Assembly: GCF_988243305.1 (NCBI RefSeq)
Contig: NZ_OZ547136.1
DNA length: 64,000 nt
Strand: one strand, 5' to 3'
Below, one piece after another: positions 264 through 47,468 of this stretch. Under the pieces are notes generated by a model. It saw only the letters and a list, made by a program, of their open reading frames with translations, did no database searches and was not told the DNA's origin. The translations under genes were made by a program, and so were the position numbers. Numbering within the stretch: the first letter of the stretch is position 1; each line of letters begins with the position of its first letter.

Positions 264-463
264 TTAGCTGGCATAACGGGCTACTGATCTCCTCTGGTTA
301 CAGATAACGACTTCAGCCCTCTGAAAGAGAAAAGCGGAAGCTCAGGAAGGTTGTGATTTGCTTTTAACCTTTTTAATTTAGAAGTATTATTTTGAGATTA
401 ATCCACTTCCCATCGTCATCCTTTTTGGTGTGCGTGAAAAGCTATTTTTAAGGTTACTGCCTC

Positions 464-2773
464 ATGGAGTTATGGATATTTATAGTAGCTATTTATTTGA
501 TTTATATTCTTTTTTTCAAAAAGAAGAAAACTAAGTCCGCGGGCTCTTATACTTCCGCTCCTGTGAAAGCACCACCTAAAGAATGGCTTGCTAACAACAA
601 AAAAAATCAGTCTGTAATGCAAAACGAGGACAGCGAAGATGACAATCTGGCTACGTTTACACTAAGTGGCGGGCGGAATGTCGAATACAGCATAACAGCC
701 ACTCAACGCCAGAATTTCTCAAAAACTACCGGTGCTTTGGCTCGTTGGATTTTTCCGGGAGAGATGATCACAATCAGTGGGATAGAGGTTACCGGCGGTC
801 ACTTCTATCTTGGGCAGCGTATGAAACCTGCCGGGCATAACTCAGGCGGTTATTATGATGGCAATAACGAGGCATCGCTAGTTGACGACACGCTTAAAAT
901 ATACCCCACACCTTACATTTACGAAGATAGTTCATTAGGGTATTGGCCCAGTTTTTCCTCACTTTCACCTGAAGCTCGTGGTGCGTACCTGAGTTGGCTT
1001 GCCAGCGACAGATGCGACACTTCCTGCCCAATTGGTTACGTTTTCATTTATCTGTATGGTCTGGAAAGAAGGGCGCTTGTTGACAGCAGGGACAACAATA
1101 TATCCGACGATGAGTTCTATTCTCTTTTCAAAGAGATCTGCCGTCTCAGATCGGTTTTCAATGAAAACCGATCTTTCCGGAATTACTCATCCCAGTTACT
1201 TGAAGCGATGTCCATTCTTCGTCTGAACGAAAATCTTGCAGCAGCTCTCAACGATGATTCGGAGTTCAGCAATAGCATGCAGTTCAGGTTAATCCTGGCA
1301 AAGACTGTTGATACAGGAGCCCCGGTTCCAGCGGATCTGGCTCTGACGTGGGTGACAAACCATGCTGAATACTCATTACGAACCCCCGCCCGCCGCTGTG
1401 CGAAAGAATTTGCTGCACTATTTAAACGGCGTTACACCCTTAAATACGGTGAAGGGATGGTAGTGAAGCCGAATAAAGCGCGTCTGCGTTTAGATTACAC
1501 GCCTGCAAGTCCCAGTTTGCGAGGTATTCGGCTTCCTGTTCCCGACTTGCCTGATCCAGGTGCATTGAAAGGCCCTGTTCAGAAGCTTATGGCCATTGCC
1601 GATATATGCACAGGTGAACTGGATGCTTACAGTCGTTACCTTGGTAGAAAAGGTACTTCAGCAAATGATACCGCTGCAATTTTGTTGCTGCCTTCAGAAA
1701 TCGTTAACGAAAGCGCAGAAAAAATATTAAGTACATTCAAACACTGGGCTGATGACGCAATCCGCAGTAAGGGTGGGATAGTTTCAGTTGCTGACTACTG
1801 GTCACATATGAATGCCACCTGTCCGGCGAAGATCAATAAAAAAGAGGCCGACTTAATGCAAGCCTTTGCACAGAAAATGGGATACTGTCTGGCTCCTGAC
1901 CCCTATCACCACCACGTAAAGGCAGATGTCGATGGTGTACTTGTTTTATTCCCTGCTGGTGAAAGAGGACGTTTCTCACCTTCTCCTGAATTTATCACAG
2001 CTGTATTGACGCTCCGATTAGGTTCGGTAGTCGCCTTGATTGACAATTCTCTCGATCAAGCCGAACAGAAAGTGCTTGAGAATGCCATCAACAACAATGC
2101 CAGCTTCAGCGATGATGAAAAGCGCTCTCTGCACGCATATTTAACGTGGCAGCTTCATACTCCGGCGAATATGACGGGAATGAAAAGCCGGATTGAATTA
2201 CTCGGTGCAGCGGAAAAATCAGCTGTGGGTAAGGTTATCGTTAGTGTCGCTTGCTCTGACGGCAGAATTACGCCTGCCGAAATCAAACAGCTTGAGAAGA
2301 TTTATACAAGCCTGGGACTGGATCCCTCATCCGTATCAAGCAATATCCATCAGCATTCCGCAACTGAAACTGCTCTCGTTTCATCTGTACCAGCTAATCA
2401 GTCGACGGCAGGATTTACGCTGGATGCCAACGTACTTGCCCGCCACGAATCTGCCACTGATGATGTTCGTAAATTACTGAACTCAATTTTCACTGAAGAA
2501 GAACCAGAACAACCAGAAAGCGCTCCAGCCTCATTAACCGGGGAAGGGGGACTTGACTCCGCTCATAGCCAACTTTATCGCAGGTTGCTGGAGAAAGAAC
2601 AATGGTCCAGAAAAGAGGCGACAGAGTTGTGTAGTAACTGGAACCTGATGCTCGGCGGTGCGCTTGAGGTGATTAACGATTGGTCCTATGCGGTGGTTGA
2701 TGCACCAGTGCTGGAAGATGCTGATGATCACATTTGGATTGACCTGGAAATAGCCAAAGAATTAGAGGGTTAG
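464..2773 (+). CDS. Membrane-anchored TerB-domain protein (TerB plus TerB-C-like C-terminus); SngA-like component of a Shango-type defense operon
   Basis: 769-aa ORF; N-terminal hydrophobic helix (LWIFIVAIYLIYILFF); TerB-like motif VACSDGRITPAEIKQLEKIYTSLGLD; 3-bp gap to next gene. Confidence 0.7.
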   Translation: MELWIFIVAIYLIYILFFKKKKTKSAGSYTSAPVKAPPKEWLANNKKNQSVMQNEDSEDDNLATFTLSGGRNVEYSITATQRQNFSKTTGALARWIFPGEMITISGIEVTGGHFYLGQRMKPAGHNSGGYYDGNNEASLVDDTLKIYPTPYIYEDSSLGYWPSFSSLSPEARGAYLSWLASDRCDTSCPIGYVFIYLYGLERRALVDSRDNNISDDEFYSLFKEICRLRSVFNENRSFRNYSSQLLEAMSILRLNENLAAALNDDSEFSNSMQFRLILAKTVDTGAPVPADLALTWVTNHAEYSLRTPARRCAKEFAALFKRRYTLKYGEGMVVKPNKARLRLDYTPASPSLRGIRLPVPDLPDPGALKGPVQKLMAIADICTGELDAYSRYLGRKGTSANDTAAILLLPSEIVNESAEKILSTFKHWADDAIRSKGGIVSVADYWSHMNATCPAKINKKEADLMQAFAQKMGYCLAPDPYHHHVKADVDGVLVLFPAGERGRFSPSPEFITAVLTLRLGSVVALIDNSLDQAEQKVLENAINNNASFSDDEKRSLHAYLTWQLHTPANMTGMKSRIELLGAAEKSAVGKVIVSVACSDGRITPAEIKQLEKIYTSLGLDPSSVSSNIHQHSATETALVSSVPANQSTAGFTLDANVLARHESATDDVRKLLNSIFTEEEPEQPESAPASLTGEGGLDSAHSQLYRRLLEKEQWSRKEATELCSNWNLMLGGALEVINDWSYAVVDAPVLEDADDHIWIDLEIAKELEG

Positions 2774-2776
2774 TGA

Positions 2777-4093
2777 ATGTCTGTAACACGTATAAGAGTG
2801 AAAGAGCGCGACGCTATCATTCAGTCACTTAAGTCGGGAGTAACGCCAAGAATAGGTATTCAGCATATCCAGGTTGGCCGCGTGAATGAGATAACCGCCC
2901 TCCATCAGGATATTGAACGGATTGCTGATGGCGGGGCAAGCTTCAGACTTATCATTGGTGAGTACGGTTCCGGGAAAACATTCTTTTTAAGTGTTGTACG
3001 GTCTATTGCGTTAGAGAAGAAGCTGGTCACGGTCAGTGCAGACCTTTCTCCCGACAGACGTATCCACTCATCGGGAGGTCAGGCTCGTAATCTCTACTCA
3101 GAGCTTATGAAAAATATGTCCACCAGAAACAAACCAGATGGCAATGCATTACTTAGCGTTGTGGAAAGGTTTGTTACTGAGGCAAGGAAGGAAGCTGATG
3201 CGAACGGCTCCCTGGTCTCATCCGTTATTCATAAACGCCTTGCTGCTTTGTCAGATATGGTGGGAGGATATGACTTTGCGAAGGTCATTGACGCATTCTG
3301 GCGCGGGCATGAGCAGGATAACGAAACCTTAAAATCCAATGCTATTCGCTGGTTGCGGGGCGAGTACACCACAAAAACTGATGCCCGTAATGATCTTGAC
3401 GTCCGAACGATTATCTCAGACGCCTCGTTCTATGATTCTTTGAAGTTGATGAGCCTTTTTGTCCGTCAGGCAGGCTATGCCGGACTTTTAGTTAGCCTCG
3501 ACGAGATGGTGAACCTCTTCAAGTTGAATAATACGCAAGCGAGAACGGCCAACTACGAACAAATTTTGCGGATCCTGAATGACTGCCTGCAAGGCTCCGC
3601 TGAAAATATTGGTTTTATCCTCGGGGGGACGCCAGAATTTCTTTTCGATCCACGTAAGGGGCTCTACAGCTATGAAGCGCTCCAGTCGCGTCTGGCAGAA
3701 AACCGATTCGCACAGAAAGCTGGCGTGATTGACTACTCGTCCCCCACGCTGCATCTTGCCAGCCTCACTCCTGAGGAACTGTATATTTTACTGAAAAACC
3801 TTCGTCATGTTTATGCTGGTGGAGATCCCGCAAATTATCTGGTGCCAGATGATGCTCTGACCGGGTTTCTGCATCACTGCAGCAAAACCATCGGAGATGC
3901 TTACTTTCGAACTCCCCGCAATACCATAAAAGGTTTTCTGGATATGCTGGCTGTGCTGGAACAAAACAGAACGATGAACTGGCAAACCCTCATTGAGGGG
4001 GTGGCGATTGAAGAAGACAAGCTCAGCGATATGGATGATGCCATTGTGGAGGAAAGTGATGACGATGATGGCCTGGCGAATTTCAGATTATGA
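2777..4093 (+). CDS. P-loop ATPase (DUF2791/BrxC-like), SngB-like
   Basis: 438-aa ORF with Walker A GEYGSGKT; stop overlaps start of the helicase gene (ATGA at 4090). Confidence 0.7.
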   Translation: MSVTRIRVKERDAIIQSLKSGVTPRIGIQHIQVGRVNEITALHQDIERIADGGASFRLIIGEYGSGKTFFLSVVRSIALEKKLVTVSADLSPDRRIHSSGGQARNLYSELMKNMSTRNKPDGNALLSVVERFVTEARKEADANGSLVSSVIHKRLAALSDMVGGYDFAKVIDAFWRGHEQDNETLKSNAIRWLRGEYTTKTDARNDLDVRTIISDASFYDSLKLMSLFVRQAGYAGLLVSLDEMVNLFKLNNTQARTANYEQILRILNDCLQGSAENIGFILGGTPEFLFDPRKGLYSYEALQSRLAENRFAQKAGVIDYSSPTLHLASLTPEELYILLKNLRHVYAGGDPANYLVPDDALTGFLHHCSKTIGDAYFRTPRNTIKGFLDMLAVLEQNRTMNWQTLIEGVAIEEDKLSDMDDAIVEESDDDDGLANFRL

Positions 4094-6288
4094 GTAGTGC
4101 CTACAATAGTCTTGATCCCCGTGTCCGTAAGTGGGTTTATAAGCAGGGCTGGTCATCCTTAAGGCCCTTGCAGGAAAGCTCTATTCCGGCAATTTTAGCC
4201 CGTGATCGTGATGTACTAATTAGTGCAGGTACAGCTGCGGGTAAAACAGAGGCTTTCTTTCTTCCTGCCTGTTCAGCGATTGCAGATCTCACTGGTGGAT
4301 TTGGCATTATCTATATCAGTCCATTGAAGGCATTAATTAACGATCAACACCGTCGTCTTGAGAGTCTTGGTGAAGCCCTGGAAATGCAAGTGACGCCCTG
4401 GCACGGGGATGTACCACAAAGCAAAAAGAAGAAAGCACGGACAACCCCTTCTGGCATCTTACTTATCACACCTGAATCACTTGAGTCTTTGCTCATAAAC
4501 TCATTGGGTTGGCTCAAACAGGCGTTTTCTTCTGTGGCATACATTGTTATTGATGAGTTCCATGCTTTTATTGGCTCAGAGCGTGGTATACAGCTGCTTT
4601 CTCTGCTTAACAGAATTGACCATGTGCTGGGACGCCAGTTGAATCCAGTTCCCCGTGTCGCGTTGAGTGCCACGCTGGGAGAGCTGGAAAAAGTACCAGA
4701 ACTATTGCGCCCGGATAAGAGATTACCTTGTGAAACGGTAACAGACAGTAATAGCAAAGCCACACTACAGGTTCAGGTTAAAGGTTATCTTGAGCGGGTG
4801 CCCGAAAAAGGAGAAGAGCTCCAGAGCTCTGCTGAACAGCTCGTCTGCGCGGATATTTTCAGGCTCTGCCGTGGCGATTCCCACCTGGTCTTTGCTAACA
4901 GTCGAAAGCGTACTGAAAGCATAGCGGCAACACTGAGCGACATGTGTGAAGCAAATGTCGTTCCTAATGAATTCTTTCCTCATCATGGTTCCCTTGCAAG
5001 GGAGTTGCGTGAGGCGCTTGAAGCCCGACTGCAGAAAGGGAATTTGCCCACAACCGCTGTTTGTACAATGACGCTGGAGCTGGGTATTGATATTGGTAAG
5101 GTGCAGTCTGTCATACAAGTGACACCTCCGCATTCTGTTTCCAGTCTGCGTCAACGCATGGGACGTTCAGGGCGGCGCGATTCCCCATCGGTGCTGAGAA
5201 TGTTAATTACTGAACCTGAACTTACCGCAACCAGCAGCATTGTGGATCATTTACGGCTGCAGTTGGTTCAGGCGATGGCAATGATCAGGTTGATGATCTC
5301 TAAGCGCTGGTTCGAGCCTGCAGATATCCGGCAGAAACATTACTCCACACTACTACACCAGATCCTGGCTATTACTGCGCAATGGGGAGGTGTTCGTGCC
5401 GATCAGCTCTGGTCACAACTTTGCCAGACAGGTCCGTTCCGGAATGTGGATATAAATGACTTCAAAAGTCTGCTTAAACATATGGGGACATGTGGCCTGC
5501 TCACTCAACTAACCAGCGGTGAAATAGTTGTCGGGGCTGAGGGGGAGAAGCTGACTAATCACTACACGTTTTATGCCGTATTCAATACACCTGAGGAGTT
5601 TCGCATTGTAACGGGAAACCGAACTCTTGGCACAGTGCCTGTAGACTCCCCACTTTTGCCGGAGCAGCACATCATCTTCGGCGGACGGCGCTGGAAAGTG
5701 ACAGAGATCGAGGTTGAAAAAAAGGTTATCTATGTTGAGACGACTAAAGGCGGTCAGCCGCCACTATTCAGTGGTACCGGGATGTCTGTTCATGATGTTG
5801 TTCGCCAGGAAATGCTCACTATCTACAGGGAAAATGATTACCGTATCGCGGTAGGCAACAAGAGAGTCGATTATGCTGATGCCGCAGCCAGAAGCCTCTT
5901 CGCGGAAGGAAGTGACAACTTCCAACGCTACAATCTACAAAATGACTGTTTTATTGCCAGTGGTCAGAACTGCTACGTGATCCCGTGGATGGGGGATAAA
6001 ATTGTCAATACAATTACGTCCCTGATTATACGTTGTGGCTTTAAAGCCAGTTCATTTGCAGGTGTGATAGAGGTAGAGGACTCAGGCGTTGCCTCTGTCC
6101 AGCGTGCACTTAAGAAAATGCTATTGTCGGGGCTACCTTCAGAGTTTGAGCTTGCTGCAGTTGTTCCCGACAAGTATCTGGATAAATATGACGAGTATTT
6201 ACCAGAGACTTTGCTTGCTAAAGGGTATGGGGCACAGGCGTATGATATAGAAGGAACGTGCATCTGGCTGCAGAAACACCTTCAGTAG
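4090..6288 (+). CDS. DEAD/DEAH-box superfamily-2 helicase with C-terminal extension (DUF1998-like), SngC-like
   Basis: 732-aa ORF; motif I GTAAGKTEAF, motif II VIDEFHAF; third gene of overlapping operon. Confidence 0.75.
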   Translation: MSSAYNSLDPRVRKWVYKQGWSSLRPLQESSIPAILARDRDVLISAGTAAGKTEAFFLPACSAIADLTGGFGIIYISPLKALINDQHRRLESLGEALEMQVTPWHGDVPQSKKKKARTTPSGILLITPESLESLLINSLGWLKQAFSSVAYIVIDEFHAFIGSERGIQLLSLLNRIDHVLGRQLNPVPRVALSATLGELEKVPELLRPDKRLPCETVTDSNSKATLQVQVKGYLERVPEKGEELQSSAEQLVCADIFRLCRGDSHLVFANSRKRTESIAATLSDMCEANVVPNEFFPHHGSLARELREALEARLQKGNLPTTAVCTMTLELGIDIGKVQSVIQVTPPHSVSSLRQRMGRSGRRDSPSVLRMLITEPELTATSSIVDHLRLQLVQAMAMIRLMISKRWFEPADIRQKHYSTLLHQILAITAQWGGVRADQLWSQLCQTGPFRNVDINDFKSLLKHMGTCGLLTQLTSGEIVVGAEGEKLTNHYTFYAVFNTPEEFRIVTGNRTLGTVPVDSPLLPEQHIIFGGRRWKVTEIEVEKKVIYVETTKGGQPPLFSGTGMSVHDVVRQEMLTIYRENDYRIAVGNKRVDYADAAARSLFAEGSDNFQRYNLQNDCFIASGQNCYVIPWMGDKIVNTITSLIIRCGFKASSFAGVIEVEDSGVASVQRALKKMLLSGLPSEFELAAVVPDKYLDKYDEYLPETLLAKGYGAQAYDIEGTCIWLQKHLQ

Positions 6289-6302
6289 ACTGGATATGTA
6301 GT

Positions 6303-6340
6303 CAGGGTATAAATAAGTATTTATACCCTTATTTTTTACT
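6303..6340 (+). terminator. Rho-independent terminator after the helicase gene
   Basis: Hairpin AGGGTATAAATA-ag-TATTTATACCCT followed by TATTTTTT, 15 bp after stop codon at 6286-6288. Confidence 0.6.
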
Positions 6341-6659
6341 TACCTGTGGACTTACTTGGCTTTAATCCCGGAGTATTGCCAGGAGTATCTTTATTATCGC
6401 GTCGGCGTTGATCCGGTTTTCCTGTTGACTTAGCAATTGGTTTTGGACCTGGTTTTAGACCCATGATAGTTATCCTTCGAGATGTAAGAGGAATGCCCTC
6501 AACATTGGTATATTCTATACTGAGAAATTTTTCAATGGGAATGTTCAACGGCCGAATGATTAACTCGATATTGTGAGCAATGTCTTTTTTTGGCACAGAG
6601 CGAACCGTTAGATTGCGCGTATTTTTATGGAAGGAGATCATCCAATAACGGTTATTCAC
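6336..6659 (-). CDS. Hypothetical protein, Lys/Pro/Gly-rich C-terminus; last gene of the ParB/PAPS-reductase operon
   Basis: 107-aa ORF; N-terminal peptide MISFHKNT shared with the ORF starting at 11417; no recognisable domain. Confidence 0.35.
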   Translation of the reverse strand: MNNRYWMISFHKNTRNLTVRSVPKKDIAHNIELIIRPLNIPIEKFLSIEYTNVEGIPLTSRRITIMGLKPGPKPIAKSTGKPDQRRRDNKDTPGNTPGLKPSKSTGK

Positions 6660-6723
6660 CGTTCTCCTTTATGGTAATACGAACCTGTTTTTTTAATATA
6701 TAGAAAAATTACTCCGACATGTT

Positions 6724-7368
6724 TTATCTTTTTGAAATCAGGACATTTACCAACTCACTTAAAACTCTCTTTTGTTCTTCATCCTGAAGATATTGAATCC
6801 GGAATTTAATCTCTTCTGCAACCCGCCTTGTATCGGACTCATTAAGTATTTTTGTTATTCGCTGTCTCTGATGTTCAGGCTGGTCTTCCATATTTCGTAA
6901 AACCAGATGAAATAATATATCATAAAGTGCGCAATGCCATGAATAACCATCATTGGTTAGAATAAGCTCCCAAACCCGCTCCTGTTCGGCAATAAGCTGC
7001 AGAACAAAGGATTCAACCTGTTCTGATTGTCCGGGGACAACCCGGTATAGCGGCGCAATCACAGCAAAAAACAGTTCATTTAGCCAGGATTCCGCCTCTT
7101 TCTCGCTCCTGAAAGATGGACAGTTCTGTATTCTTCGTTCGTATTCACGGGTAACCTGCTCCGGAATATCCTCCGGCGGTGTCAGCCACTTATTCCTGAG
7201 CAATATACTGGTTGACGGATGGCAGCAGGCTATTTCAGCAATAATTTCACGTAATGCCTCCGGGCTGAATTTCTTCAGCTGATTGTAGTGCTCCCGGGTA
7301 AAACCATGATCATCGCATAAAAGTTGCCATGTCATTGATATACTGTTTGCCATTCCTTTCTTCATCAT
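6724..7368 (-). CDS. Hypothetical protein (214 aa), operon partner of ParB-like/PAPS-reductase-like genes
   Basis: Intact ORF 20 bp downstream of preceding gene on same strand; no recognised domain. Confidence 0.5.
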   Translation of the reverse strand: MMKKGMANSISMTWQLLCDDHGFTREHYNQLKKFSPEALREIIAEIACCHPSTSILLRNKWLTPPEDIPEQVTREYERRIQNCPSFRSEKEAESWLNELFFAVIAPLYRVVPGQSEQVESFVLQLIAEQERVWELILTNDGYSWHCALYDILFHLVLRNMEDQPEHQRQRITKILNESDTRRVAEEIKFRIQYLQDEEQKRVLSELVNVLISKR

Positions 7369-7388
7369 TAATACCTGTTACCTGAATA

Positions 7389-7697
7389 TCAACAGACCGG
7401 TGTACCTTTTCTGAATACCTCCCCGGACGGACTGGCAATCCCCATTCGCCTCAGCGTGGCATCTGCAGCTTTCGCCACTTCGCTGATATCCAGCTTTTCA
7501 GGTAGCGGCGGGGACGATATCTGCGCCAGACAATAATTCCTGCGCAACAACAACCACTCCCGTTGTGCTTCTGTACATTCAACATTTCCCATAACAAAAA
7601 GCCAGCGGGCGGAAGCTCTGCGCCAGCAACCCGCAGCCTCCAGCTTCTGTGCAACCATGTCTTCCACGACTTCCGGGGTACTCTTTTTCCTGCTCAA
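7389..7697 (-). CDS. Hypothetical small protein (102 aa)
   Basis: ORF 39 bp downstream of ParB-like gene, same strand; no recognised domain. Confidence 0.45.
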   Translation of the reverse strand: MSRKKSTPEVVEDMVAQKLEAAGCWRRASARWLFVMGNVECTEAQREWLLLRRNYCLAQISSPPLPEKLDISEVAKAADATLRRMGIASPSGEVFRKGTPVC

Positions 7698-7736
7698 AAC
7701 ATTAACTCACTGAAATAATATACATATATGACGGTC

Positions 7737-8375
7737 TCAGCGAACCGTCCATGCCGGACTGAAATCCTCTTCCAGAAACAGCTCCGTCAGCCCGCTAATC
7801 TGTTTCAACCTGAGAACTTCATCCTGGTCCATACCCAGCTCCGTACCAATACGTTCATCCGTCCAGCCCAGCCGCGACAGGTCCCTGACAATATCAGACA
7901 TTGAAGTTATCTGGTGCTTCCCCCTGGCCCGGTTATGTCTAATGGTTGCAGCAATACGTGAGGCCTGTCCCTTTCTTTCCGGATTAATACAGGTCACTGG
8001 CAACCAGCCCTTCAGGCGTTTTCCCGTACCTGCTTCCCTGCCCAGTAATTGACGATGAAAACCATCCACGACCAGATAATGCTCCTTCTCTTCCGAGACA
8101 ACCACAGGCTGCGTGAACCCATCCTGCTCCAGTGAATGTTTCAGCAGTTTCTTCTCACCCGGCGCCATGACATTGGGGTTATAATCGTTGGCCACCACCT
8201 CATCTGCTTTCACCCACAGCACACAGTCCACAGGCTCCTGTGCAAATGGACTGACCTCATGAAGCACCCTGCGCAGATGATTCAGGGCCTGTATGGCCTC
8301 TTCTTCTGGTCGTTCCTGGCTGAAGTACTGACGAATCATGTTGCTCAGTATCTCCGGTGTCACAGAATCCCCCAT
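7737..8375 (-). CDS. ParB/Srx-like nuclease-domain protein (IbrB/YbdM family)
   Basis: 212-aa ORF with ParB-like core (YLVVDGFHR); overlaps upstream PAPS-reductase-like gene by 16 nt. Confidence 0.8.
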   Translation of the reverse strand: MGDSVTPEILSNMIRQYFSQERPEEEAIQALNHLRRVLHEVSPFAQEPVDCVLWVKADEVVANDYNPNVMAPGEKKLLKHSLEQDGFTQPVVVSEEKEHYLVVDGFHRQLLGREAGTGKRLKGWLPVTCINPERKGQASRIAATIRHNRARGKHQITSMSDIVRDLSRLGWTDERIGTELGMDQDEVLRLKQISGLTELFLEEDFSPAWTVR

Positions 8376-9592
8376 TCCTTCCTCCTTTCTTTCATACGCT
8401 GCAGATAACGTTCATAGTGCCGGGGTTTGTTCGGACTGAAGGAGAGGGTACGGCACCAGAAATCATTCTTTATAAGTGTCTTACAGATACGCCGCCAGGA
8501 CGGAATATCCCGGCTCCCCAGGTCATTCTCCTGTTCATCCGGGATGTCATCCGGGAAGCCCCGCGTCTGATACCAGCGCAGGTAGACAGCAATTTTATTA
8601 CGGTAATGTTCTGCCGTTCTTTCCGGCATCACATCCAGCAGGAACATCGCATAGCTGCGCCAGGTATGATGGGCTGGTTTTGATATACGTTTACGCAGGG
8701 CAAAATAGGCACCGCTTTCATTGGCATAAAGCGCCCCGCTGGCAGCGCCTGACACCCGCTCACACATCCTGGCCCAGGTTTCCGGTTCCAGAACATGGTA
8801 AAGCCACAGTCCCTTACGTTGTTCAGGACCAAAAGGTTCACAGACACGCATGTTGCGTAACGGTACGCCGGCACGGTACATCAGATCATACAGGGGATTG
8901 TAGATGGCACGGGTTCTGGTGTGATATATCCAGATATCACGAGTTTTCCAGTCATACAGCGGATACATAGTGTAGTAAAACCCTTCAGGCGATGCCGTGG
9001 TCCAAGGCTTATCATCGGCATATCTCAGTTTGCGCTGGGACACCAGTCCCATAAAGCGGTTGAGGGATTCATCCGCCCGAACACCGGTCAGCACTGCCAC
9101 TCCACACCGGTTGCCAGCAAACCAGGAAGAAAATGCCGGAACAAATTCTTCAAACGTCATGGCATACCGGTAAAAGGGAAAATACGCCATATCCGTAATG
9201 GCCTCTTCCGGTGGCTGGCGAACCCAGGTCACACGAGGCTCCCAGCATATCCACTCCGGTTGAAACTGCGAGACACCGTTTACCGTGGTCAGGGGAAGCG
9301 CCACCCAGTAAAAGGTTTCCGTCACATCATGGTACATTTCCCGCATCTTCTGAATATGTTCAATGGTGCACTGGTACTGAGCCTCCCAGTCAATGAACAG
9401 TACAGAGAAACGACGTCTTTTCCTGCGGGCCACATCAGCCACAAGATGGAAAAGCACGGTGGAATCTTTACCACCGGAAAAAGAGAGACAAACTGATGGA
9501 AATGTTTCAAAAATCCACTCAATACGAGCAATTGCTGCACGCAGAACATTCTCTCCAGTAAGGACTTTCTCCGTTAAAAAATTATCATTCAT
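8360..9592 (-). CDS. PAPS reductase-like / adenine nucleotide alpha-hydrolase protein (IbrA/YbdN family, DndC-like fold)
   Basis: 410-aa ORF with PP-loop SFSGGKDS near N-terminus; translationally coupled to the ParB-like gene. Confidence 0.8.
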   Translation of the reverse strand: MNDNFLTEKVLTGENVLRAAIARIEWIFETFPSVCLSFSGGKDSTVLFHLVADVARRKRRRFSVLFIDWEAQYQCTIEHIQKMREMYHDVTETFYWVALPLTTVNGVSQFQPEWICWEPRVTWVRQPPEEAITDMAYFPFYRYAMTFEEFVPAFSSWFAGNRCGVAVLTGVRADESLNRFMGLVSQRKLRYADDKPWTTASPEGFYYTMYPLYDWKTRDIWIYHTRTRAIYNPLYDLMYRAGVPLRNMRVCEPFGPEQRKGLWLYHVLEPETWARMCERVSGAASGALYANESGAYFALRKRISKPAHHTWRSYAMFLLDVMPERTAEHYRNKIAVYLRWYQTRGFPDDIPDEQENDLGSRDIPSWRRICKTLIKNDFWCRTLSFSPNKPRHYERYLQRMKERRKEWGIL

Positions 9593-9732
9593 TTATTTTT
9601 ACTTTATGCAAAAGAAACCTGTTTATGCTTTCAACATATAGCAACAAACATTAAATGACGTTTAATTAGCCACTACTAAAATTGCTTACTTTCATCCTGA
9701 TGAACATATAAAACATATTACAAACATATTTA

Positions 9733-30603: not shown

Positions 30604-32406
30604 GTGCGCCGTGACTGGCGCTGTTCTTCAACTGTGGTGGCAGAAGAACGACTAAGAGGTGAAAGTCCTCCACACACCCGGTGAGGGGAAGTGTTAGCGG
30701 AAGGCAAGGGTGTTCATCGCGAGGTGAAATCTGAAGGAAGCTGGATGCAAAATGCTGGCCTGACGAACAGGAAGCGGTTAAGTCGGCGCAGCAGGGTAAG
30801 GTGGCACAAATCACCAAAGCCCGATACTCACACGGAACGCTGTGACGTAAAGCCGACAGGCATAAGCAGGAAAGTCGCGTGAATTACCCCGGGAGATCTG
30901 TCGCCCTGCCAGTGTGCTACCGGCGCCGTGAGGCGCCGGGATGGGGCGGCAGAAGTCAGCCGACGCCGTAGTAGTGCTGCAAAACCGGCAGCATGAAGGG
31001 CCGAACATGATTAACTGTGATTAGGACATCCGAACCCGATGATGATTAATGAAGCACAAGCGCAGGCAACTGCGACCAGCGGCAGAGGAGACGGACAGTA
31101 TCCGTCAGGGCTGCATGATGGCGCTGAAATCAGCACGGCGGCGGGTGGGCAAACGAAAGCGGAAGTGCCGCTGACGATGGAAGCGGTGATAACGAGAGAA
31201 AACCTGATGCTGGCTTATCAGCGCGTGGTGGAAAACAAAGGCACGGCGGGGGTGGATAACCTCAGCGTGGCGGAGTTGAAACCGTGGCTGAAGAAGAACT
31301 GGCGCAGCGTCAGGCAGGCATTGATTGACGGAAACTACCAGCCGCGGGCAATACGCCGGATGGATATCCCGAAGCCGCATGGCGGCGTGAGAACCTCAGG
31401 CATCCCGACGGTGGTGGACAGGCTTATCCAGCAGGCGGTGCAACAGGCACAGCGTTACATACGGGGTGGCAAACGGTGGGTGGTGGATATGGATCTGGAG
31501 AAGTTCTTCGACCGTGTGGATCACAGACTCCTGATGACGCGTCTGGCCAGAACGATAAAGGACAGGCGGGTGCTGTGACTGATACGCCGCTACCTGAAAG
31601 CGGAAATGGTTAAAGACGGGCAAAGGGAGAAACGGCAGGCGGGCATGCTGCAGGGCGGCCCACTGTCGCCGTTACTGTCGAACATCCTGCTGGATGAACT
31701 GGATAAAGAACTGGAGCGTCGTGGACACAGCTTCTGCCGCTACGCAGACGACTGCAACATCTACGTAAGCAGCCGGAAAGCGGGCGACCATCTGCTGAAG
31801 AACATCAGGGCGTTCGTGGAGAACAAACTGAAGGTGAATGAGAAGAAGAGCGCGGTGGCGCGCCCGTGGGATCGGAAGTTCCTCGGGTACAGTGTGACAT
31901 GGCACAAACAGGCGAAGCTGAAGATAGCCCTGACGAGCGTGAACAGGCTGAAGGAGAAAGTCCACAGTCTGACGACGGGAAACCGGAGCAAATCAGTGAA
32001 AGCGACAATCAATGCTCTGACACCAGTGCTGTGTGGATGGATAAGCTACTTCAGGCTGACGGAAGTCAGAGGAGTGCTGGAGGAGCTGGATGGCTGGATC
32101 AAACGGAAACTGCGTTGCTTGTTGTAGCGGCAGTGGAAGAGACCGCTAACCCGGGCAAAGAACCTGCAAAGAGCAGGACTGAGTAAGGACAGGGCAATGA
32201 TCTCTGCGTACAACAACCACGGGCCATGGTGGAACTCAGGGTCAAGCCATATGAATCAGGCGATAAAGAATACATGGTTCAGGAGGCAGGGTCTGATATC
32301 ACTGCTGGAACAGTAGAGGCAGTTCCAGAGTTAACATGAACCGCCGTATGCGGAACCGCACGTACGGTGGTGTGAGAGGACGGCGGGAGTGATCCCGCCT
32401 CCTACT
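30604..32406 (+). mobile_element. Group II intron (bacterial class C-like, inserted just downstream of a terminator hairpin), degenerate
   Basis: 5' end GTGCG at 30604; domain V-like hairpin at ~32341-32372; internal RT/maturase ORF; 3' boundary approximate. Confidence 0.7.
31039..32316 (+). pseudogene. Group II intron reverse transcriptase/maturase with two in-frame stop codons and an internal deletion
   Basis: RT motifs (LEKFFDRVDH, QGGPLSPLLSNILLD, YADD); in-frame TGA at 31576-31578 and TAG at 32125-32127 with homology continuing downstream (GPWWNSGSSHMN); ~30 aa missing after LIQQAV. Confidence 0.75.
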
Positions 32407-41045: not shown

Positions 41046-41272
41046 TGCGTCCTGCCCGTGAATGAGCTGACGTGTTATAGCTTGCGGATGGGGTTGATGG
41101 AATAAGTGAAGAACCGAAGCAGAACGGGAAGATCAGGTCACCGACAAGGGACAGAACACCGGATGTGGTTAAGAGTGAATGATCTCCGTTGACTTCAGTT
41201 CACATCATTAAGCAAGGTGGTAAGGTTTTACCGACGGAATGTTTCCAGGACAGGAAGCTCAGGATTTAAGCT

Positions 41273-41839
41273 TCAGAAGTGAGGGTTACGAGGACGCCCT
41301 GCAGCAGGACGTTCAGGAACTTCATTGCAGCCGTAGGCACACAGCCCGTCTTTTTGCTCTTCTTTTGCCAGATAATGCAGGGCACCGCGAATATTATCGA
41401 TGCTTTCAGGATCGTTGTGGCGCACAGGAATGTTGATGTTGTATGTATAATGCGGCTGATATGTACAGCGGTGTGCCGAACCGCTGTTATGTGTAATAGA
41501 CCGCCAGCATTCCGTAATCCGCTCCGCAAAGGGATATATTTTTTTAACCCTCTGACGATCGATCCACAAAACCGCATGCGCATGAAAACCATGATCAGCC
41601 GTCCATTCAATCACCCAGAAGAAACCAACGATATTTTCAAATTGTTCCACCTGCTCCAGCAGCATACGCAACTGCAATTCAAGCCAGCGATGATCAGGTT
41701 GTAAGAAATCGGGCGTATCTTTCCTGTAGAAGAAATCCATCCGTAAGGCCCGCAGGCAGGAATAGCGTGCCATCATTTGATTGATGTGATTGTCAAGTAA
41801 AGCGGTAAAAAACCAGTTTGGTGTGTAAGATTTAGGCAT
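41273..41839 (-). CDS. YfjJ/YagK-family prophage protein, paralog 2
   Basis: 188-aa ORF with HAHAVLWI motif. Confidence 0.55.
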   Translation of the reverse strand: MPKSYTPNWFFTALLDNHINQMMARYSCLRALRMDFFYRKDTPDFLQPDHRWLELQLRMLLEQVEQFENIVGFFWVIEWTADHGFHAHAVLWIDRQRVKKIYPFAERITECWRSITHNSGSAHRCTYQPHYTYNINIPVRHNDPESIDNIRGALHYLAKEEQKDGLCAYGCNEVPERPAAGRPRNPHF

Positions 41840-42670
41840 GTTGATGACTCCTGAAAGTTAATGATGTTTTAAGCTCTGTGAACGAATTAATGCTTTCGCT
41901 CATAACGGTAATAACTTACAGATGGTATTTATCAGGCATGCTGTAGCAGAATGGATACGACGGGTTATTAACGATACGCAGCATTATGCAGAAAGAAATG
42001 GATTATCTGATGGTATTAGCTAAAGAGATGAGATAAACGAGGAGTAAAGAAAATACAGACTCAATAAAACATCACGAAATACTGTAAAATACGAGCTAAA
42101 ACCCCACTACCTGGAGATTAAGAAACATATTGCGACCAATCACATCATAAACTACAAACTTGCTCTCAGTGAGTCTGCAAAAACGTGTACAAGGCCAACA
42201 CATATCTGTAACCTGATAAAATCATACACTCTCATTTAATCTGTTAAAAACAACTCACTTCAAAACATGAGCGTTAACGGGTACACGGTACCAGAATAAA
42301 ATATACCATGGATGGATAATTTTCATTTTGTTTAACATACAAGATAATCAGAAACGAACAAATATAATCAGGAATTCACTCTGTTAATTTCATTGTTTAT
42401 CCTGCGCTGTTAAACATGACGAAATCATGGATACCTTATCAAAGAGTAAACATCCAGTTAATCAGTGATGACAGAAGTATTGATATTTACCAGAATAGTT
42501 AAAACACTTCAGGTCAACAACAATCATCGTTAAGTCAATACAGTTCATTATGGATAATGACTAAAATCAATTGCTGTTTCAGTGAAGACTGATAACAGGT
42601 AGATATTAGCAACAACGTAGTAAAATAACTTATCTGAGTATCGTATGAATTACAGTAGTTATGATTGAAT

Positions 42671-42721
42671 GAAGGAGAAGGTGGAGAAGGTGGAGAAGGT
42701 GGAGAAGGTGGAGAAGGTGGA
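42671..42721. repeat. Short tandem repeat, 9-bp unit GAAGGTGGA x5 plus partial copy
   Basis: Read directly from sequence in AT-rich ORF-free region; explains spurious Pro/Ser-repeat ORF on minus strand. Confidence 0.9.
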
Positions 42722-43157
42722 TACCATGATAATGGTGGCAATGAAGATTAGACAAGGAAGGGAGTAAGTATAATCGGGTGAGGGTCAGAGTAATGGAATG
42801 AGTAAAGATAGAGAGTAAGTAAAAACAGAGTGAATAAAGACAAAGTGAATATAATTATAGTAATAAACCTAAATTAAAAATACTTGCGTATAATGGAAAG
42901 AAATAAGAATTAAGAATAGCGTATGAGTCGTAGTCATGACCTGGCTACAAAAAGTCATTCCATCTGGCTGTCATTCAGACACACTCCCCAAACATTCGAC
43001 TACAAAGTACTAACAGAAAATTAACTGATGTATTATTCTTCTGCCCTGAATGAACATCCGGAAGTATAATCTCCCCTAGCTTCACGTTCACCGGGAAAAA
43101 CGAAGCTATTTACTTTGATGATCGCTGACGAAAAACCGAACAGGCAGTTGCATAATC

Positions 43158-44252
43158 ATGGACAACAGAGAAAAAGAGATACTCAGGATCCTGCGTCACA
43201 ACCCACTGATCCAGCAGAATGAAATTGCTGAGATTTTACAAATCAGTCGGTCGCGTGTTGCTGCACACATTATGGATCTGATGCGCAAAGGTGCGATTAA
43301 AGGGAAAGGCTACATCCTGACAGAACAGGAATACTGTGTTGTTCTTGGGGCGATTAACATGGATATCCGTGGGGTGGCGGATATCCATTATCCACAGAAA
43401 TCCTCCAGTCCGGGCAGTATTTACTGCTCTGCCGGAGGTGTCGGACGCAACATCGCCCATAATCTCGCCCTTCTGGGCCGCAATGTGCATCTGATATCTG
43501 CTGTAGGCAATGATTTTTATGGCGAAACATTACTGGAGCAGACCCGCCTGGCCGGCGTTAATGTCACCAATTGTATTCGACTGAACGGACAAAATACTTC
43601 AACTTATGTCTCCATCGCCGACCTACAGGCAGAAACAGTGATGGCGATTAATGATACCCATATTCTGCAACAACTGACGCCGCAGTTGCTGGACGCCTCA
43701 CGTATGTTAATCCGTCACGCTGGCGTGGTGCTGGCTGACTGTAATCTGACACCTGCCGCCCTTGAATGGATCTTTACGGTCGCTGACGGCATTCCCGTTT
43801 TTATTGATACAGTGTCGAAATTTAAGGCTGTTAATGTAAAAAACTGGCTTCCGCATATCCATACCCTGAAACCCACACAAAAAGAACTGGAGATATTATG
43901 GGGTTCCCCTGTCAACAATGAGACCGATCTACTCACCGCAGTGAACGCACTACATCAGCAGGGTGTGCAACAGATTTTTGTCTGGATGGGAGATGAATCC
44001 GTTTTCTGTAGCCAAAGAGAGGGAGAACAATTTCTGCTCACACCGCCCGTTCATGCCGTTGTGGACAGCTTTGGTGCAGATGATGGCTTTATGGCAGGTC
44101 TGCTTTACAGTTTTCTGGAAGGAAGTAGTTTCCAGGAAAGTGCTCACTTTGCGATGGCATGTGCAGCACTGTCACGTGCCAGCACCAGCATCAATAACCC
44201 AACACTTTCCGTTAATAACGCGCAATATCTGTTAAAAACATCCCGGGGGTAA
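43158..44252 (+). CDS. YeiI-like protein: N-terminal winged-helix HTH fused to PfkB-family sugar/nucleoside kinase
   Basis: 364-aa ORF; HTH (LIQQNEIAEILQISRSRVAAHIMDL) plus PfkB motifs (GGVGRNIAH, DSFGADDGFMAG). Confidence 0.8.
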   Translation: MDNREKEILRILRHNPLIQQNEIAEILQISRSRVAAHIMDLMRKGAIKGKGYILTEQEYCVVLGAINMDIRGVADIHYPQKSSSPGSIYCSAGGVGRNIAHNLALLGRNVHLISAVGNDFYGETLLEQTRLAGVNVTNCIRLNGQNTSTYVSIADLQAETVMAINDTHILQQLTPQLLDASRMLIRHAGVVLADCNLTPAALEWIFTVADGIPVFIDTVSKFKAVNVKNWLPHIHTLKPTQKELEILWGSPVNNETDLLTAVNALHQQGVQQIFVWMGDESVFCSQREGEQFLLTPPVHAVVDSFGADDGFMAGLLYSFLEGSSFQESAHFAMACAALSRASTSINNPTLSVNNAQYLLKTSRG

Positions 44253-44270
44253 CACCCGGGATTGTATTTT

Positions 44271-45521
44271 TTATGCCAGCCCAATGAAAAAACCAGCGAT
44301 AGTCGCACTCATCAGGTTTGACAGGGTGGCCGCCGCCAGTGCACGCATGCCCAGTTGTGCAATTTCAGGTGCACGCTGAGGTGATATGGCTGAAAAGGCA
44401 CCCACCACCACACCAATGGAGCCAAAGTTGGCAAAACCACACAGTGCAAAAGAAATAATTGCGGTGGTTTTCACATCAAGCGTACTGCCTGGCTGTAAAT
44501 AGGGTGAAAGATTGAGATAAGCAACAAATTCGTTAATTGCCAGCTTCTGACCAATCAGACTTCCTGCCAGTGAAGCATCCGCCCAGTCAACGCCCATGAT
44601 CCACGCAAGGGGAGCCAAAATCCAGCCGAAAATGCCCTCAAGGGTAATATTACCATAACCAAACCAGCCTCCGATACCACCGATTATACCGTTAATCAGA
44701 GCAATAATAGCAACAAAGGTCATCACTACCGTTGCAACTCCGACAGCGATTTTCAACCCGGTCATCGCCCCGCTGGCCACTGCTTCAATAACACTTTTGG
44801 GAGGAGTATCAGTGAAAGAAAGATTTTCAAAAGTGACTTTTGATTCTTCTGTGGCCGGACTCAGAATACGGGCAAAAAGGATCCCCCCCGGGATCGCCAT
44901 CAACGACGCCGCCAGCAAATAGTCAATCGGAACCCCCATCCCGGCATAGCCGATCATCATTGAACCGGCAATCGAAGCCATCCCACTGCAGATGACAGTA
45001 AATAATTCATTACGATTCAGACGATTAATAAACGGTTTTACAATTGCCGGGATCTCGTTTTGCCCCAGGAAAATTGTCGTTACTGCCACAAATGACTCAA
45101 CTTTACTTATGTTCAGAGCTTTCTGAAAAATCCCCCCCAGAATACGGATAAGCCCCCCCATCACTCTGATGTAGTACAGCAGACTGATAAGCGCTGTAAC
45201 AAAAATGATGGCAGGAAGTACACGGAAGGCGAAGATAAAACCCGCCCCATCGAACAGTACGTCCATTTTGTCCCCTACCAGAGAGCCAAAAATAAAGGCA
45301 CTGCCCGCATCACTGTAAGACATAATTTTATGTACGCCCAGTGCAGCCTGTTCAACCAGCCATTTCCCCGGGGGGAAATAGAGCATGATCCCACCAATCG
45401 CGATTTGAAGAACCAGTGCAGCTCCTGTGGTACGTAAACTGATACGTTTTTTATTCACTGATAGTAGAAATGCAATTATCAGCAATACTGCCATTCCCAC
45501 TATACTTCTCATGATGTCCAT
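44271..45521 (-). CDS. psuT: NupC-family nucleoside transporter (pseudouridine transporter PsuT-like)
   Basis: 416-aa polytopic membrane ORF of NupC/CNT family; downstream of psuG/psuK on same strand. Confidence 0.75.
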   Translation of the reverse strand: MDIMRSIVGMAVLLIIAFLLSVNKKRISLRTTGAALVLQIAIGGIMLYFPPGKWLVEQAALGVHKIMSYSDAGSAFIFGSLVGDKMDVLFDGAGFIFAFRVLPAIIFVTALISLLYYIRVMGGLIRILGGIFQKALNISKVESFVAVTTIFLGQNEIPAIVKPFINRLNRNELFTVICSGMASIAGSMMIGYAGMGVPIDYLLAASLMAIPGGILFARILSPATEESKVTFENLSFTDTPPKSVIEAVASGAMTGLKIAVGVATVVMTFVAIIALINGIIGGIGGWFGYGNITLEGIFGWILAPLAWIMGVDWADASLAGSLIGQKLAINEFVAYLNLSPYLQPGSTLDVKTTAIISFALCGFANFGSIGVVVGAFSAISPQRAPEIAQLGMRALAAATLSNLMSATIAGFFIGLA

Positions 45522-45604
45522 AATGCTCTCCCCTTATACCTGAACCAGACACGGAATCTGGTTCAGGTAATTTCGGGCGACCTCACACTGCCCGTTCATT
45601 TATA

Positions 45605-46540: not shown

Positions 46541-47468
46541 TCTGTTTCTCCACTAAGCTTTTAACGTTAGCAACAGATAATTCAGGATTATTGGTATACT
46601 CACTGGCCAGCGCCATTGATGAACACCCCTGTGCAAATCGAATGGAATCAATAAATGGCATATTATCAACCCAGCAGGAAGCCAGCCCTGCCATCATGGC
46701 ATCCCCTGCCCCCGTAACGTTCACCACCTGTGTTTTTACTGGCGGCGACCAGCCGCTGGCTCCGTACAGTTCGCTGTAATAAACTCCATCCCCCCCCATG
46801 CTGAGCACAAGGCGATTCAGACCATGTGTATGGAACCATACCGCCACTTTTTCAGCATCATTCCGATCTGAAAGCGAAATACCACTGAGTGTTTCTGCTT
46901 CAAGCCGGTTGGGCTTGAGAGTATGAATTTGTGCTAAATGTTCACGAATTTTGACACACTTCCATGCAGATACCGGGTCAACAAATACCGGAACCTTACC
47001 TGCATTATTCAGTAGCCAGACAAGTGTTGACTCACTGATATTACAGTCTGCAACAATAACCTTCGCTCCCTGAATAAAATCAATATGCTGTGATAAAAAC
47101 TCAGCTGAAATATGTTCACTAATCGTCATGTCATTTATTGCCACCAACATTTCACCGGTTTTATCGAGAAGTGATAAATAACTTGAGGTATTTTCTCCAT
47201 TAACAATCAGACATTTATCAACATTAACGCCGGACTGAGTCGTTTGTGCTAATAATGATTGCCCGTAGAAATCATCTCCCACAGCTGACATCAGCCATGA
47301 GTTTTTACCCAGCAGAGCAAGATTATGTGCAATATTACGCCCCACACCTCCGGGCGTGAATTTAATCTTCCCCGGGTTAGAATCAGCATAATTTAAGGAG
47401 GCATACGAATATCCGGCTATATCTATATTGGCAGAGCCAATTGTGATGATGTATTCCTTATCACACAT
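46533..47468 (-). CDS. psuK: Pseudouridine kinase (PfkB family)
   Basis: Start at MCDKEYIITIGSANIDIAGY with RBS CAGGAGA; high similarity to E. coli PsuK as recalled. Confidence 0.8.
   Translation of the reverse strand: MCDKEYIITIGSANIDIAGYSYASLNYADSNPGKIKFTPGGVGRNIAHNLALLGKNSWLMSAVGDDFYGQSLLAQTTQSGVNVDKCLIVNGENTSSYLSLLDKTGEMLVAINDMTISEHISAEFLSQHIDFIQGAKVIVADCNISESTLVWLLNNAGKVPVFVDPVSAWKCVKIREHLAQIHTLKPNRLEAETLSGISLSDRNDAEKVAVWFHTHGLNRLVLSMGGDGVYYSELYGASGWSPPVKTQVVNVTGAGDAMMAGLASCWVDNMPFIDSIRFAQGCSSMALASEYTNNPELSVANVKSLVEKQNV

Follow-up and report, generated by a model that had tools for sequence, protein, structure and literature searches.

An intact Shango anti-phage defence operon, sngA-sngB-sngC, and a proposed mode of action for its three proteins

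Experiments in two species have demonstrated that the Shango system acts against phages. The operon of E. coli KTE113 was cloned (construct SG206) and is entered as “observed defense = v” in Table S2 of Millman et al. 2022 (10.1101/2022.05.11.491447), while that of P. aeruginosa PA14 (PA14_RS11735-11745) gave a 10- to 100-fold EOP change as well as protection in liquid culture (Johnson et al. 2023, PMC10250203). Protection in E. coli is modest, about 10-fold against two phages (PMC10250203). A sequence-only reading of the DNA studied here had described the mechanism of this system as poorly understood and, indeed, we found no mechanistic paper on Shango in the literature searched. Homologues of SngB and SngC occur in type-2 BREX (Pgl), namely BrxD and BrxHI, respectively. 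BrxD has been classed as an ORC/Cdc6 AAA+ protein that forms a tightly linked dyad with BrxHI, with a proposed role as helicase loader, and BrxHI has the same layout as SngC, namely an SF2 core, a wHTH, a small beta-barrel, and an Lhr-CTD-like domain (PMC12839542). One defence-specific clade of SF2 helicases unites SngC with BrxHI, DruE, and DpdJ (PMC12278908).

The window analysed here is a stretch of 64,000 nucleotides (RefSeq assembly GCF_988243305.1, contig NZ_OZ547136.1), in which positions 464-6288 of the + strand are, with near certainty, an intact Shango operon, as had been proposed from its gene architecture; the identification is thus correct, but the system is already known and not new. 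The PADLOC Shango models match all three proteins near full length, with 334 bits for SngA (6.4e-100; residues 41-768 on profile positions 12-524 of 528), 619.5 bits for SngB (8.7e-187), and 923.2 bits for SngC (4e-278), far above the BREX models discussed below. The three ORFs are intact and tightly packed; the 3-bp gap between sngA and sngB (TAG-TGA-ATG) and the 4-bp overlap between sngB and sngC (ATGA) are exactly as first read. All catalytic motifs of SngB and SngC are intact, including the Walker A GEYGSGKT that had been picked out in SngB, and dN/dS values of 0.21, 0.09, and 0.12 for sngA, sngB, and sngC indicate purifying selection on each gene, SngB being the most conserved of the three proteins, followed by SngC and then SngA. 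Of 69 homologous loci, drawn from Proteobacteria, Bacteroidota, Chloroflexota, Actinomycetota, and other phyla, 68 keep the genes colinear in the order A-B-C, which argues that the arrangement is not due to chance. Taking the identification together with the mechanism proposed below, we consider this the best overall explanation of the locus, with a probability of roughly 0.85. Features are listed in Table 1.

Table 1. Features of the Shango operon, in window coordinates.
Feature	Residues	Position	Strand	Basis or remark
Conserved Shango cassette		325..6597	+	139 bp upstream, three genes, ~300 bp downstream
sngA, membrane-anchored TerB_N / TerB / TerB_C protein	769 aa	464..2773	+	PADLOC, Pfam, AF2 model
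SngA N-terminal transmembrane helix	2-18	467..517	+	hydropathy, model
KKKK directly after the helix		518-529	+	
SngA linker motif EDSEDDNLATFTL	55-67	626..664	+	inside disordered linker 22-90
SngA TerB_N domain	98-309	755..1390	+	Pfam 2.9e-47
SngA TerB domain	519-624	2018..2335	+	Pfam 1e-5; two conserved D...E helix-start motifs
SngA TerB_C domain	644-768	2393..2767	+	Pfam 3e-27
sngB, BrxD-family (ORC/Cdc6-type) AAA+ ATPase	438 aa	2777..4093	+	PADLOC, Pfam
SngB Walker A, GEYGSGKT	61-68	2957-2980	+	
SngB Walker B, GLLVSLDE	236-243	3482-3505	+	
SngB C-terminal acidic tail ESDDDDGLANFRL-COOH	426-438	4052..4090	+	
sngC, Lhr-type DExH SF2 helicase	732 aa	4090..6288	+	
SngC C-terminal module		5257..6282	+	modelled secondary structure, superposition on Lhr core
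Terminator-like hairpin (11-bp stem) and T-run		6304..6339	+	consensus scan, sequence; pattern match only; begins 16 bp 3' of the sngC stop codon

Alignment to the validated KTE113 operon leads to the same identification. Genes, gene order, and the three protein lengths are those of KTE113, with identities of 91.5% (SngA), 99.0% (SngB), and 97.7% (SngC) over the first 399 residues of each protein, so that the operon in the window is an allelic variant of the KTE113 one. The 34 SngA substitutions found in these 399 residues cluster at the start of TerB_N, where allelic changes concentrate at residues 97-140. The upstream block of the KTE113 clone is shared with the window from about position 324, i.e., some 139 bp before sngA, and presumably holds the promoter; the DNA further upstream differs, as does the genomic context. 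The PA14 operon is described as the same triad of a TerB-like protein, an ATPase, and a DEAD/DEAH helicase, but it belongs to another species and another locus (core defence hotspot cDHS1). By analogy with these two operons, the allele in the window would be expected to protect against phages.

As BrxD (148.4 bits, 8.7e-44) and BrxHI (385.2 bits, 1.4e-115) are the second-best PADLOC models and SngB falls in the Pfam family BrxC_BrxD (1.3e-150), one could also take the SngB-SngC pair for what remains of a type-2 BREX (Pgl) system after the loss of its other partners. The Shango models, however, outscore these BREX models in bits by factors of 4.2 (SngB) and 2.4 (SngC), SngB reaches only 143.9 bits against the curated cut-off of 350 of the NCBIfam BrxD equivalog (NF033438), and a TerB gene accompanies the pair in all but one of the homologous loci. 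We reject this reading, to which we give next to no chance, because the core genes PglZ, PglX, BrxC, and PglW are absent from the annotation of 20 kb upstream and about 58 kb downstream (identical RefSeq region). PADLOC likewise finds no BREX core match among the neighbouring ORFs, the only BREX-related match there being IbrA, with a weak PAPS-reductase-type similarity to BrxP. Unlike type-2 BREX, Shango lacks these four genes, hence methylation-based self-marking, and couples the ATPase-helicase pair to a TerB_N/TerB/TerB_C protein.

SngA, for which RefSeq gives the product name “tellurite resistance TerB family protein”, had been read as a membrane-anchored TerB protein, and both halves of that description hold. 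The hydropathy maximum of the protein (Kyte-Doolittle 19-residue mean of 2.07) falls on a single N-terminal hydrophobic helix, modelled at pLDDT 83-91 within an AF2 model of 86.4 overall; according to the positive-inside rule, the lysines that follow suggest an N-out/C-in topology that would leave most of the protein on the cytoplasmic side. Behind it come a linker of low pLDDT in the monomer model and the three Pfam domains. TerB_N contains an E201/R202 pair, in GYVFIYLYGLERR, that is invariant in an alignment of 77 sequences; the helix-start motifs of TerB are D527/E534 and D599-G600/E606; the final ~70 residues of TerB_C are modelled with a winged-helix-like H-E-H-H-E-E topology. Winged-helix-like folds are present in the model and no enzyme fold is. 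A DjlA-like co-chaperone, the alternative initially considered for SngA, is rejected, as Pfam finds no DnaJ domain and the C-terminus is TerB_C. Judging from published descriptions, Bunzi (BnzA) and Dionysus (DinB) resemble SngA in combining a TerB domain with membrane association, but they lack its TerB_N and TerB_C flanks and, where Shango has an ATPase and a helicase, are accompanied by membrane proteins or pore-forming toxins.

The properties ascribed to TerB domains, metal binding and membrane association, agree with a trigger that senses membrane or ions no less well than with one that senses DNA. The operon could be a Shango system in which the TerB domain of SngA surveys membrane or ions, at injection or at the late disturbance of lysis, and releases SngB and SngC to attack all DNA, the host's included, with abortive infection by death or growth arrest as the result. 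Several observations point this way: at least 90 of 150 family representatives (at least 60%) have an N-terminal transmembrane segment, the TerB domain retains its two conserved acidic motifs, and the operon contains no self/non-self mark such as a methyltransferase. Membrane surveillance was proposed for TerB-containing systems by Millman et al. (10.1101/2022.05.11.491447), and Dionysus, which also contains TerB, works at an early infection-vesicle stage (10.1101/2025.09.30.679545). Nevertheless, the operon encodes no toxin-like or pore-forming effector, and SngA variants devoid of the transmembrane segment bear DNA-binding domains instead; we, thus, consider abortive surveillance unlikely, although it is the rival to be taken most seriously. 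The helix is missing in about a third of family members, so that the core mechanism must be able to do without a membrane anchor, a point that also weighs against the mechanism favoured below. DNA-binding modules are found in the N-terminal extensions of SngA homologues, with ScoMcrA_N and HARE-HTH in one homologue without the helix and HhH in 3 of 24 long variants.

The third protein, read at first as a DEAD-box helicase with a C-terminal extension, is indeed an SF2 helicase (Pfam DEAD and Helicase_C) with the GTAAGKT (residues 47-53) and DEFH (155-158) motifs then recognized, to which we add motif III SAT (193-195) and motif VI QRMGRSGR (355-362); DEFH is nonetheless a DExH sequence, as in Lhr, and the strict DEAD-box label does not stand. 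The extension exists as well, and its nature is that of an Lhr module (in the model, a winged helix at ~390-481, a small beta-barrel at ~503-551, and an alpha+beta domain at ~569-731, corresponding to Lhr domain 4) and not a nuclease, for which Pfam finds no domain in SngC. The model superposes over its full length on the Lhr core, whose four-domain fold it shares. SngC is only 23% identical to the mycobacterial Lhr core (PDB 5v9x) and to MrfA/YprA (6znp), and it is encoded in a mobile defence cassette, unlike these repair helicases.

This likeness bears on a reading without any defence, where a housekeeping or stress operon would serve tellurite/metal resistance or Lhr-like DNA repair: the RefSeq name of SngA can be cited for it, and the best NCBIfam matches of SngC are repair helicases (ligase-associated DEXH and Lhr). 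All these matches are, however, far below their cut-offs (TIGR04121, 237 bits against 850; PRK09751 (Lhr), 103.5 against 1496), and no other ter genes (terC, terD, terZ, etc.) are found in the surrounding island; the Ter tellurite cluster (terZABCDEF) has a stand-alone TerB of about 150 aa, as opposed to the 769-aa multidomain SngA. The operon is accessory, being complete in 442 of 5,426 complete genomes (8% of E. coli genomes) and reduced to decayed remnants in hundreds, and the near-identical KTE113 operon protects against phage. The evidence on ter genes, cut-offs, accessory status, and KTE113 defence effectively refutes a housekeeping role, which we hold to be very improbable.

The operon DNA is 100% identical to that of many E. 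coli chromosomes, where it lies within a tRNA-Phe genomic island, and the 6.3-kb cassette moves between unrelated contexts; the window and E. coli strain C7, for instance, have in common one block of 96.75% identity with unrelated DNA on both flanks. It also occurs on 602 plasmid records, 535 of them predicted conjugative, and in none of 50,697 phage genomes. Such a distribution would suit a system directed mainly at plasmid or conjugative DNA entering the cell, Shango being chiefly a weapon between mobile elements on islands and large plasmids. It shares E. coli genomic islands with the antiplasmid system ApsAB (PMC11096173), and DNA transferred as a single strand would readily come within reach of an ssDNA translocase tethered to the membrane. 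One has to keep in mind, however, that plasmid carriage is common among defence systems generally, that the activity demonstrated in two species is directed against phages, and that we found no anti-plasmid phenotype of Shango in the literature searched; we, therefore, regard plasmids as an improbable main target.

We return to the mechanism that we favour for the Shango operon, most likely that of a membrane-tethered scaffold, an ORC-like loader, and a 3'-5' DNA translocase acting on incoming phage DNA. SngA would sit at the cytoplasmic face of the inner membrane, held by its signal-anchor helix, from which some 70 residues of flexible, acidic linker would extend to a TerB_N / winged-helix / TerB / TerB_C body serving as a sensing and regulatory scaffold near the site of phage DNA entry. 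SngB would dock by its invariant acidic L-x-x-F-x-L C-terminal peptide and spend ATP to load or switch on SngC, a presumed Lhr-type 3'-to-5' ssDNA translocase starting at exposed 3' ends or single-stranded regions of phage DNA. By unwinding this DNA or stripping proteins off it, SngC would cause replication or circularisation to fail, and infected cells would be directly immune instead of killing themselves. For the three-protein complex, DNA binding, helicase polarity, and the fate of phage DNA, we rely on homologues or predicted structures, and the full chain from SngA through SngB and SngC to phage DNA, which we infer, is tentative, the odds being somewhat against its holding at every step. 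The membership of SngB in the BrxD family supports the loader step, and the DNA-binding modules of SngA homologues and the winged-helix-like folds support the mechanism as well.

Physical assembly of the three proteins is suggested by a shared peptide. The SngB C-terminus reads L-x-x-F-x-[LI] in 70/70 sequences (-6 is L in 70, -3 is F in 69, and -8 is D in 63 of the 70), and 44 of 68 SngA linkers contain the same core motif, L-x-x-F-x-L, where shuffles predict 0.41. The acidic L-A-x-F-x-L of the SngB tail and SngA linker might then be a docking or hand-off switch in which both copies compete for a single site provided by either the helicase or the SngA body, and by which the membrane-tethered SngA restrains the SngB-SngC motor until infection, the output being 3'-end-directed unwinding and degradation of phage DNA; this is more speculative still, and rather doubtful. 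If true, the switch would provide a concrete assembly logic for Shango, and possibly for BrxD-BrxHI of type-2 BREX too.

As the E. coli operon encodes no nuclease, destruction of the DNA would presumably be left to host nucleases there, whereas actinobacterial versions could rely on an exonuclease of their own. Indeed, a C-terminal DEDDh 3'-5' exonuclease (E-values down to 6e-50) is fused to SngC in three actinobacterial proteins, only 3 of the 48 SngC sampled; these fusions support the proposed mechanism and suggest a 3'-end-directed unwinding and degradation of phage DNA.

The operon at 464-6288 (+) is an allele of Shango, a known and experimentally supported defence system, as follows from profile matches, from comparison with the validated operon of E. 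coli KTE113 and from the validation of a homologue in P. aeruginosa PA14. Its three genes are separated by a 3-bp gap (TAG-TGA-ATG, sngA/sngB) and a 4-bp overlap (ATGA, sngB/sngC), which is the layout described by the sequence-only reading; the motifs quoted there are all present, namely GEYGSGKT in SngB (61-68) and GTAAGKT and DEFH in SngC (47-53 and 155-158), together with a Walker B GLLVSLDE in SngB (236-243) and helicase motifs III and VI in SngC. That reading had named Shango from architecture, and the searches bore it out: PADLOC profiles matched SngA (6.4e-100), SngB (8.7e-187) and SngC (3.5e-278), with full-length coverage for the latter two, and Pfam placed TerB_N (98-309), TerB (519-624) and TerB_C (644-768) on SngA, BrxC_BrxD (1.3e-150) on SngB, and DEAD and Helicase_C on SngC. 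Every mark of Shango membership that can be checked in silico was found. The second-best PADLOC models were BrxD (8.7e-44) and BrxHI (1.4e-115), the ATPase and helicase of type-2 BREX; that the operon is a fragment of BREX is nevertheless much less likely than the mechanisms weighed below.

The KTE113 proteins have the same lengths as those of the window (769, 438, and 732 aa), with identities of 91.5% for SngA, 99.0% for SngB and 97.7% for SngC over the first 399 residues of each. Table S2 of Millman et al. 2022 (10.1101/2022.05.11.491447) lists the KTE113 operon as construct SG206, “Shango”, with the entry “observed defense v”, and the same authors cite Anantharaman et al. 2012 for the original TerB-ATPase-helicase prediction; the homologous PA14 operon was validated independently (PMC10250203). 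Identification by itself adds little, as both PADLOC and DefenseFinder cover Shango, and an almost identical operon from E. coli was validated earlier; the locus is an already known system, and the remaining interest is in mechanistic leads rather than in the locus. The practical value is a correct defence annotation for three genes that RefSeq calls “tellurite resistance TerB family protein”, “ATP-binding protein” and “DEAD/DEAH box helicase”, generic names explained by NCBIfam, which lacks an SngA model and matches SngB (BrxD) and SngC (repair-helicase families) only below threshold. Feature coordinates are collected in the table.

Features of the Shango operon, its surroundings and homologous loci (positions in the window unless a comparison locus, L, is named)
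Feature	Position	Strand	Details
sngA (TerB-domain protein)	464-2773	+	ORF, 769 aa
SngA linker peptide	626-664		SngA residues 55-67; EDSEDDNLATFTL in the window
sngB (BrxD-family ATPase)	2777-4093	+	ORF, 438 aa
SngB tail peptide	4052-4090		SngB residues 426-438
sngC (Lhr-type SF2 helicase)	4090-6288	+	ORF, 732 aa
Terminator-like hairpin	6304-6329		3' of sngC; pattern match
PerC-family regulator	7389-7697	-	small cluster just downstream of Shango
IbrB-like ParB-domain protein	7737-8375	-	same cluster
IbrA-like PAPS-reductase protein	8360-9592	-	same cluster
IS4-family (IS10-like) transposase	59705-60913		within 59705-63985
208-aa ORF	61294-61920	opposite strand	between transposase and tet(B)
tet(B) tetracycline efflux gene	61951-63204		910 bits, above curated cut-off
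SngC-DEDDh fusions (Nonomuraea, Blastococcus)	L083 5197-8115; L084 10589-14335; L085 10424-13363
TM-less SngA homologues	L006 7001-9970; L007 767-3736		SngA family alignment

A scan of reference genomes by SngA alignment gave 80 loci (L010-L089) from many phyla, and the order sngA-sngB-sngC was colinear in 68 of the 69 with enough downstream sequence. Median global identity to the E. coli proteins was 45% for SngA, 77% for SngB and 62% for SngC, with the ranking SngB > SngC > SngA holding in 62/65 loci; within E. coli, dN/dS values were 0.21, 0.09 and 0.12 for SngA, SngB and SngC, respectively, with SngA substitutions concentrated at residues 97-140. Taken together, these data indicate that SngA is the adaptable part of the system and SngB the most constrained one. 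Actinomycetota SngB proteins share 58-63% identity with that of E. coli, and for a defence protein about 60% between such distant hosts is exceptionally high; this conservation (at least 58% between E. coli and other phyla) is a testable mechanistic handle, as are the SngC-exonuclease fusions described below. Two rare departures from the usual layout were seen: in one divergent lineage (L008 10504-10863; L009 6434-6793) a further gene, encoding 119 aa, lies between sngB and sngC, and there is a gap of ~6 kb between sngA and sngB at L087 9076-15288, possibly an insertion.

SngB belongs to the BrxD family. BrxD itself has been placed among the stand-alone ORC/Cdc6 AAA+ ATPases; it occurs in tight linkage with BrxHI and may serve to load a helicase (PMC12839542). 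The C-terminal extension noted earlier on SngC is indeed there and can now be named: it consists of an Lhr-type winged helix, a small beta-barrel and an alpha+beta domain, a layout like that described for BrxHI (PMC12839542). No nuclease was found in this extension. Lhr is a 3'-to-5' single-stranded DNA translocase and, given the Lhr-type layout, SngC is predicted to be one too. In three actinobacterial loci (Nonomuraea and Blastococcus), SngC is longer (973-1249 aa) and carries a C-terminal DEDDh (DnaQ-like) 3'-5' exonuclease (E down to 6e-50), a possible clue to the effector missing from the E. coli operon.

The AF2 model of SngA (mean pLDDT 86.4) comprises a helix (2-18), a disordered stretch (~22-90), a confidently folded body (90-640) and then the TerB_C region. 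Since KKKK comes after, and not before, the hydrophobic helix, we infer from the positive-inside rule that the helix is a signal anchor and that the bulk of the protein is cytoplasmic. The SngA family (1,769 clusters at 50% identity, E <= 1e-30) has a conserved core at residues ~90-767 and a variable N-terminus: a TM segment is present in no fewer than 90 of 150 representatives, one TM-less representative carries ScoMcrA_N and HARE-HTH domains there instead, and HhH domains occur in 3/24 long variants. Many TM-less forms begin with M-x-F-[LF]-D-[RK]-[FLW], which may be an amphipathic membrane-binding helix. This exchangeable N-terminal module, membrane anchor or DNA-binding domains, is a further handle on the mechanism. 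So is a short peptide shared by two of the proteins: all 70 SngB compared (70/70) end in an acidic run followed by L-x-x-F-x-[LI]-COOH (typically L-[AT]-x-F-[KR]-L), and an acidic L-A-x-F-x-L motif lies in the disordered SngA linker at 44/68 loci vs 0.41 expected from shuffles. The very divergent Persicobacter Shango (L090), the most distant well-covered plasmid match, has another SngB tail (...ALVDGIEEL). We found no prior description of the acidic LxxFxL peptide in the literature searched; sequence searches of solved structures with SngA and SngB returned nothing usable, and there is no deposited Shango or BrxD structure.

We tentatively propose that SngA would act as a membrane-tethered cytoplasmic scaffold and sensor, and that SngB, an ORC-like ATPase, would dock via its C-terminal peptide and load or activate SngC; the latter would translocate 3'-to-5' on phage DNA and block phage replication, with degradation of this DNA left to the fused exonuclease in some lineages and to host nucleases in others. 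To the whole chain from scaffold through loader to translocase we give a probability of roughly 35%. In the main rival, the system would be triggered by membrane or ion sensing and end in abortive infection, as suggested by Millman et al. for TerB-containing systems (10.1101/2022.05.11.491447); we consider it somewhat less likely. We favour direct immunity, since protection of liquid cultures by the PA14 system extended over a wide range of phage doses (PMC10250203).

Many E. coli chromosomes match the 5.8-kb operon stretch at 100% identity, and at least 80% of it is present in 442 of 5,426 complete genomes, in two main allele classes (~100% and ~97% identity); that it is a housekeeping operon is much less probable than a role in defence. 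Several hundred more genomes have only remnants of the sngC 3' end, which in E. coli, CFT073 among others, take the form of 792 bp directly bordering an IS3 element (L003 5001-5792) or of the last ~150 bp of the gene; as the remnant adjoins the same IbrAB/PerC neighbours, the cassette has been lost repeatedly from this island. In the near-identical strain CFSAN061761, which the window matches to about 41.2 kb before diverging, the operon is within an island running from tRNA-Phe (after dsbD-dicD) to before cadC. E. coli C7 has the same operon between unrelated genes, and the block common to both is 325-6597, so the mobile unit is the three genes with ~139 bp upstream and ~300 bp downstream. 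A consensus scan of the conserved upstream block (325-463) gave no convincing sigma-70 promoter, which was therefore left unannotated; a weak candidate, TTTAAC-N16-TATTAT, was read by eye around 366-393.

Plasmid records with the operon number 602 (80-99% DNA identity), mostly conjugative Klebsiella and Salmonella plasmids: carriers include 466 Klebsiella, 144 Salmonella (megaplasmids of ~300 kb) and others, and 535 are predicted to be conjugative. A primary role against plasmids is, in our opinion, far less likely than one against phages. The presence of Shango on such large plasmids is relevant to phage therapy against these hosts. Neither the operon nor full-length SngA was found in 50,697 phage genomes.

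The opposite-strand genes at 6336-10440 were considered as Shango accessories and rejected, as they lie mostly outside the cassette and the neighbours differ in C7; none matched a defence family, except for weak PADLOC similarity of IbrA to the PAPS-reductase components BrxP and DndC. The cassette end (6597) falls inside the first of their ORFs, a putative 107-aa one (6336-6659, -; RefSeq hypothetical, no PADLOC match) lying partly in the conserved 3' flank. Further along, a 595-aa protein (12235-14022, -), a “3'-5' exonuclease” in RefSeq, matches the PADLOC candidate family C3a187 (NERD + UvrD helicase, 4.6e-138) and could represent another defence candidate of this island, one made of a single gene. 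The glycyl-radical propanediol microcompartment locus (about 16.5-36.9 kb) has, between grpO and grpP, two adjacent short ORFs annotated as reverse-transcriptase family (31039-31578 and 31606-32127, +); these resemble one RT gene that has been split or has decayed. The 7.6 kb at 41258-48857, missing from the otherwise near-identical CFSAN061761, encode a pseudouridine kinase, a NupC-family nucleoside transporter and a PRK09954-type sugar kinase, and look like a pseudouridine-utilisation cluster. Finally, the arrangement at 59705-63985 resembles that of a Tn10-type resistance transposon, which would have inserted into the island.
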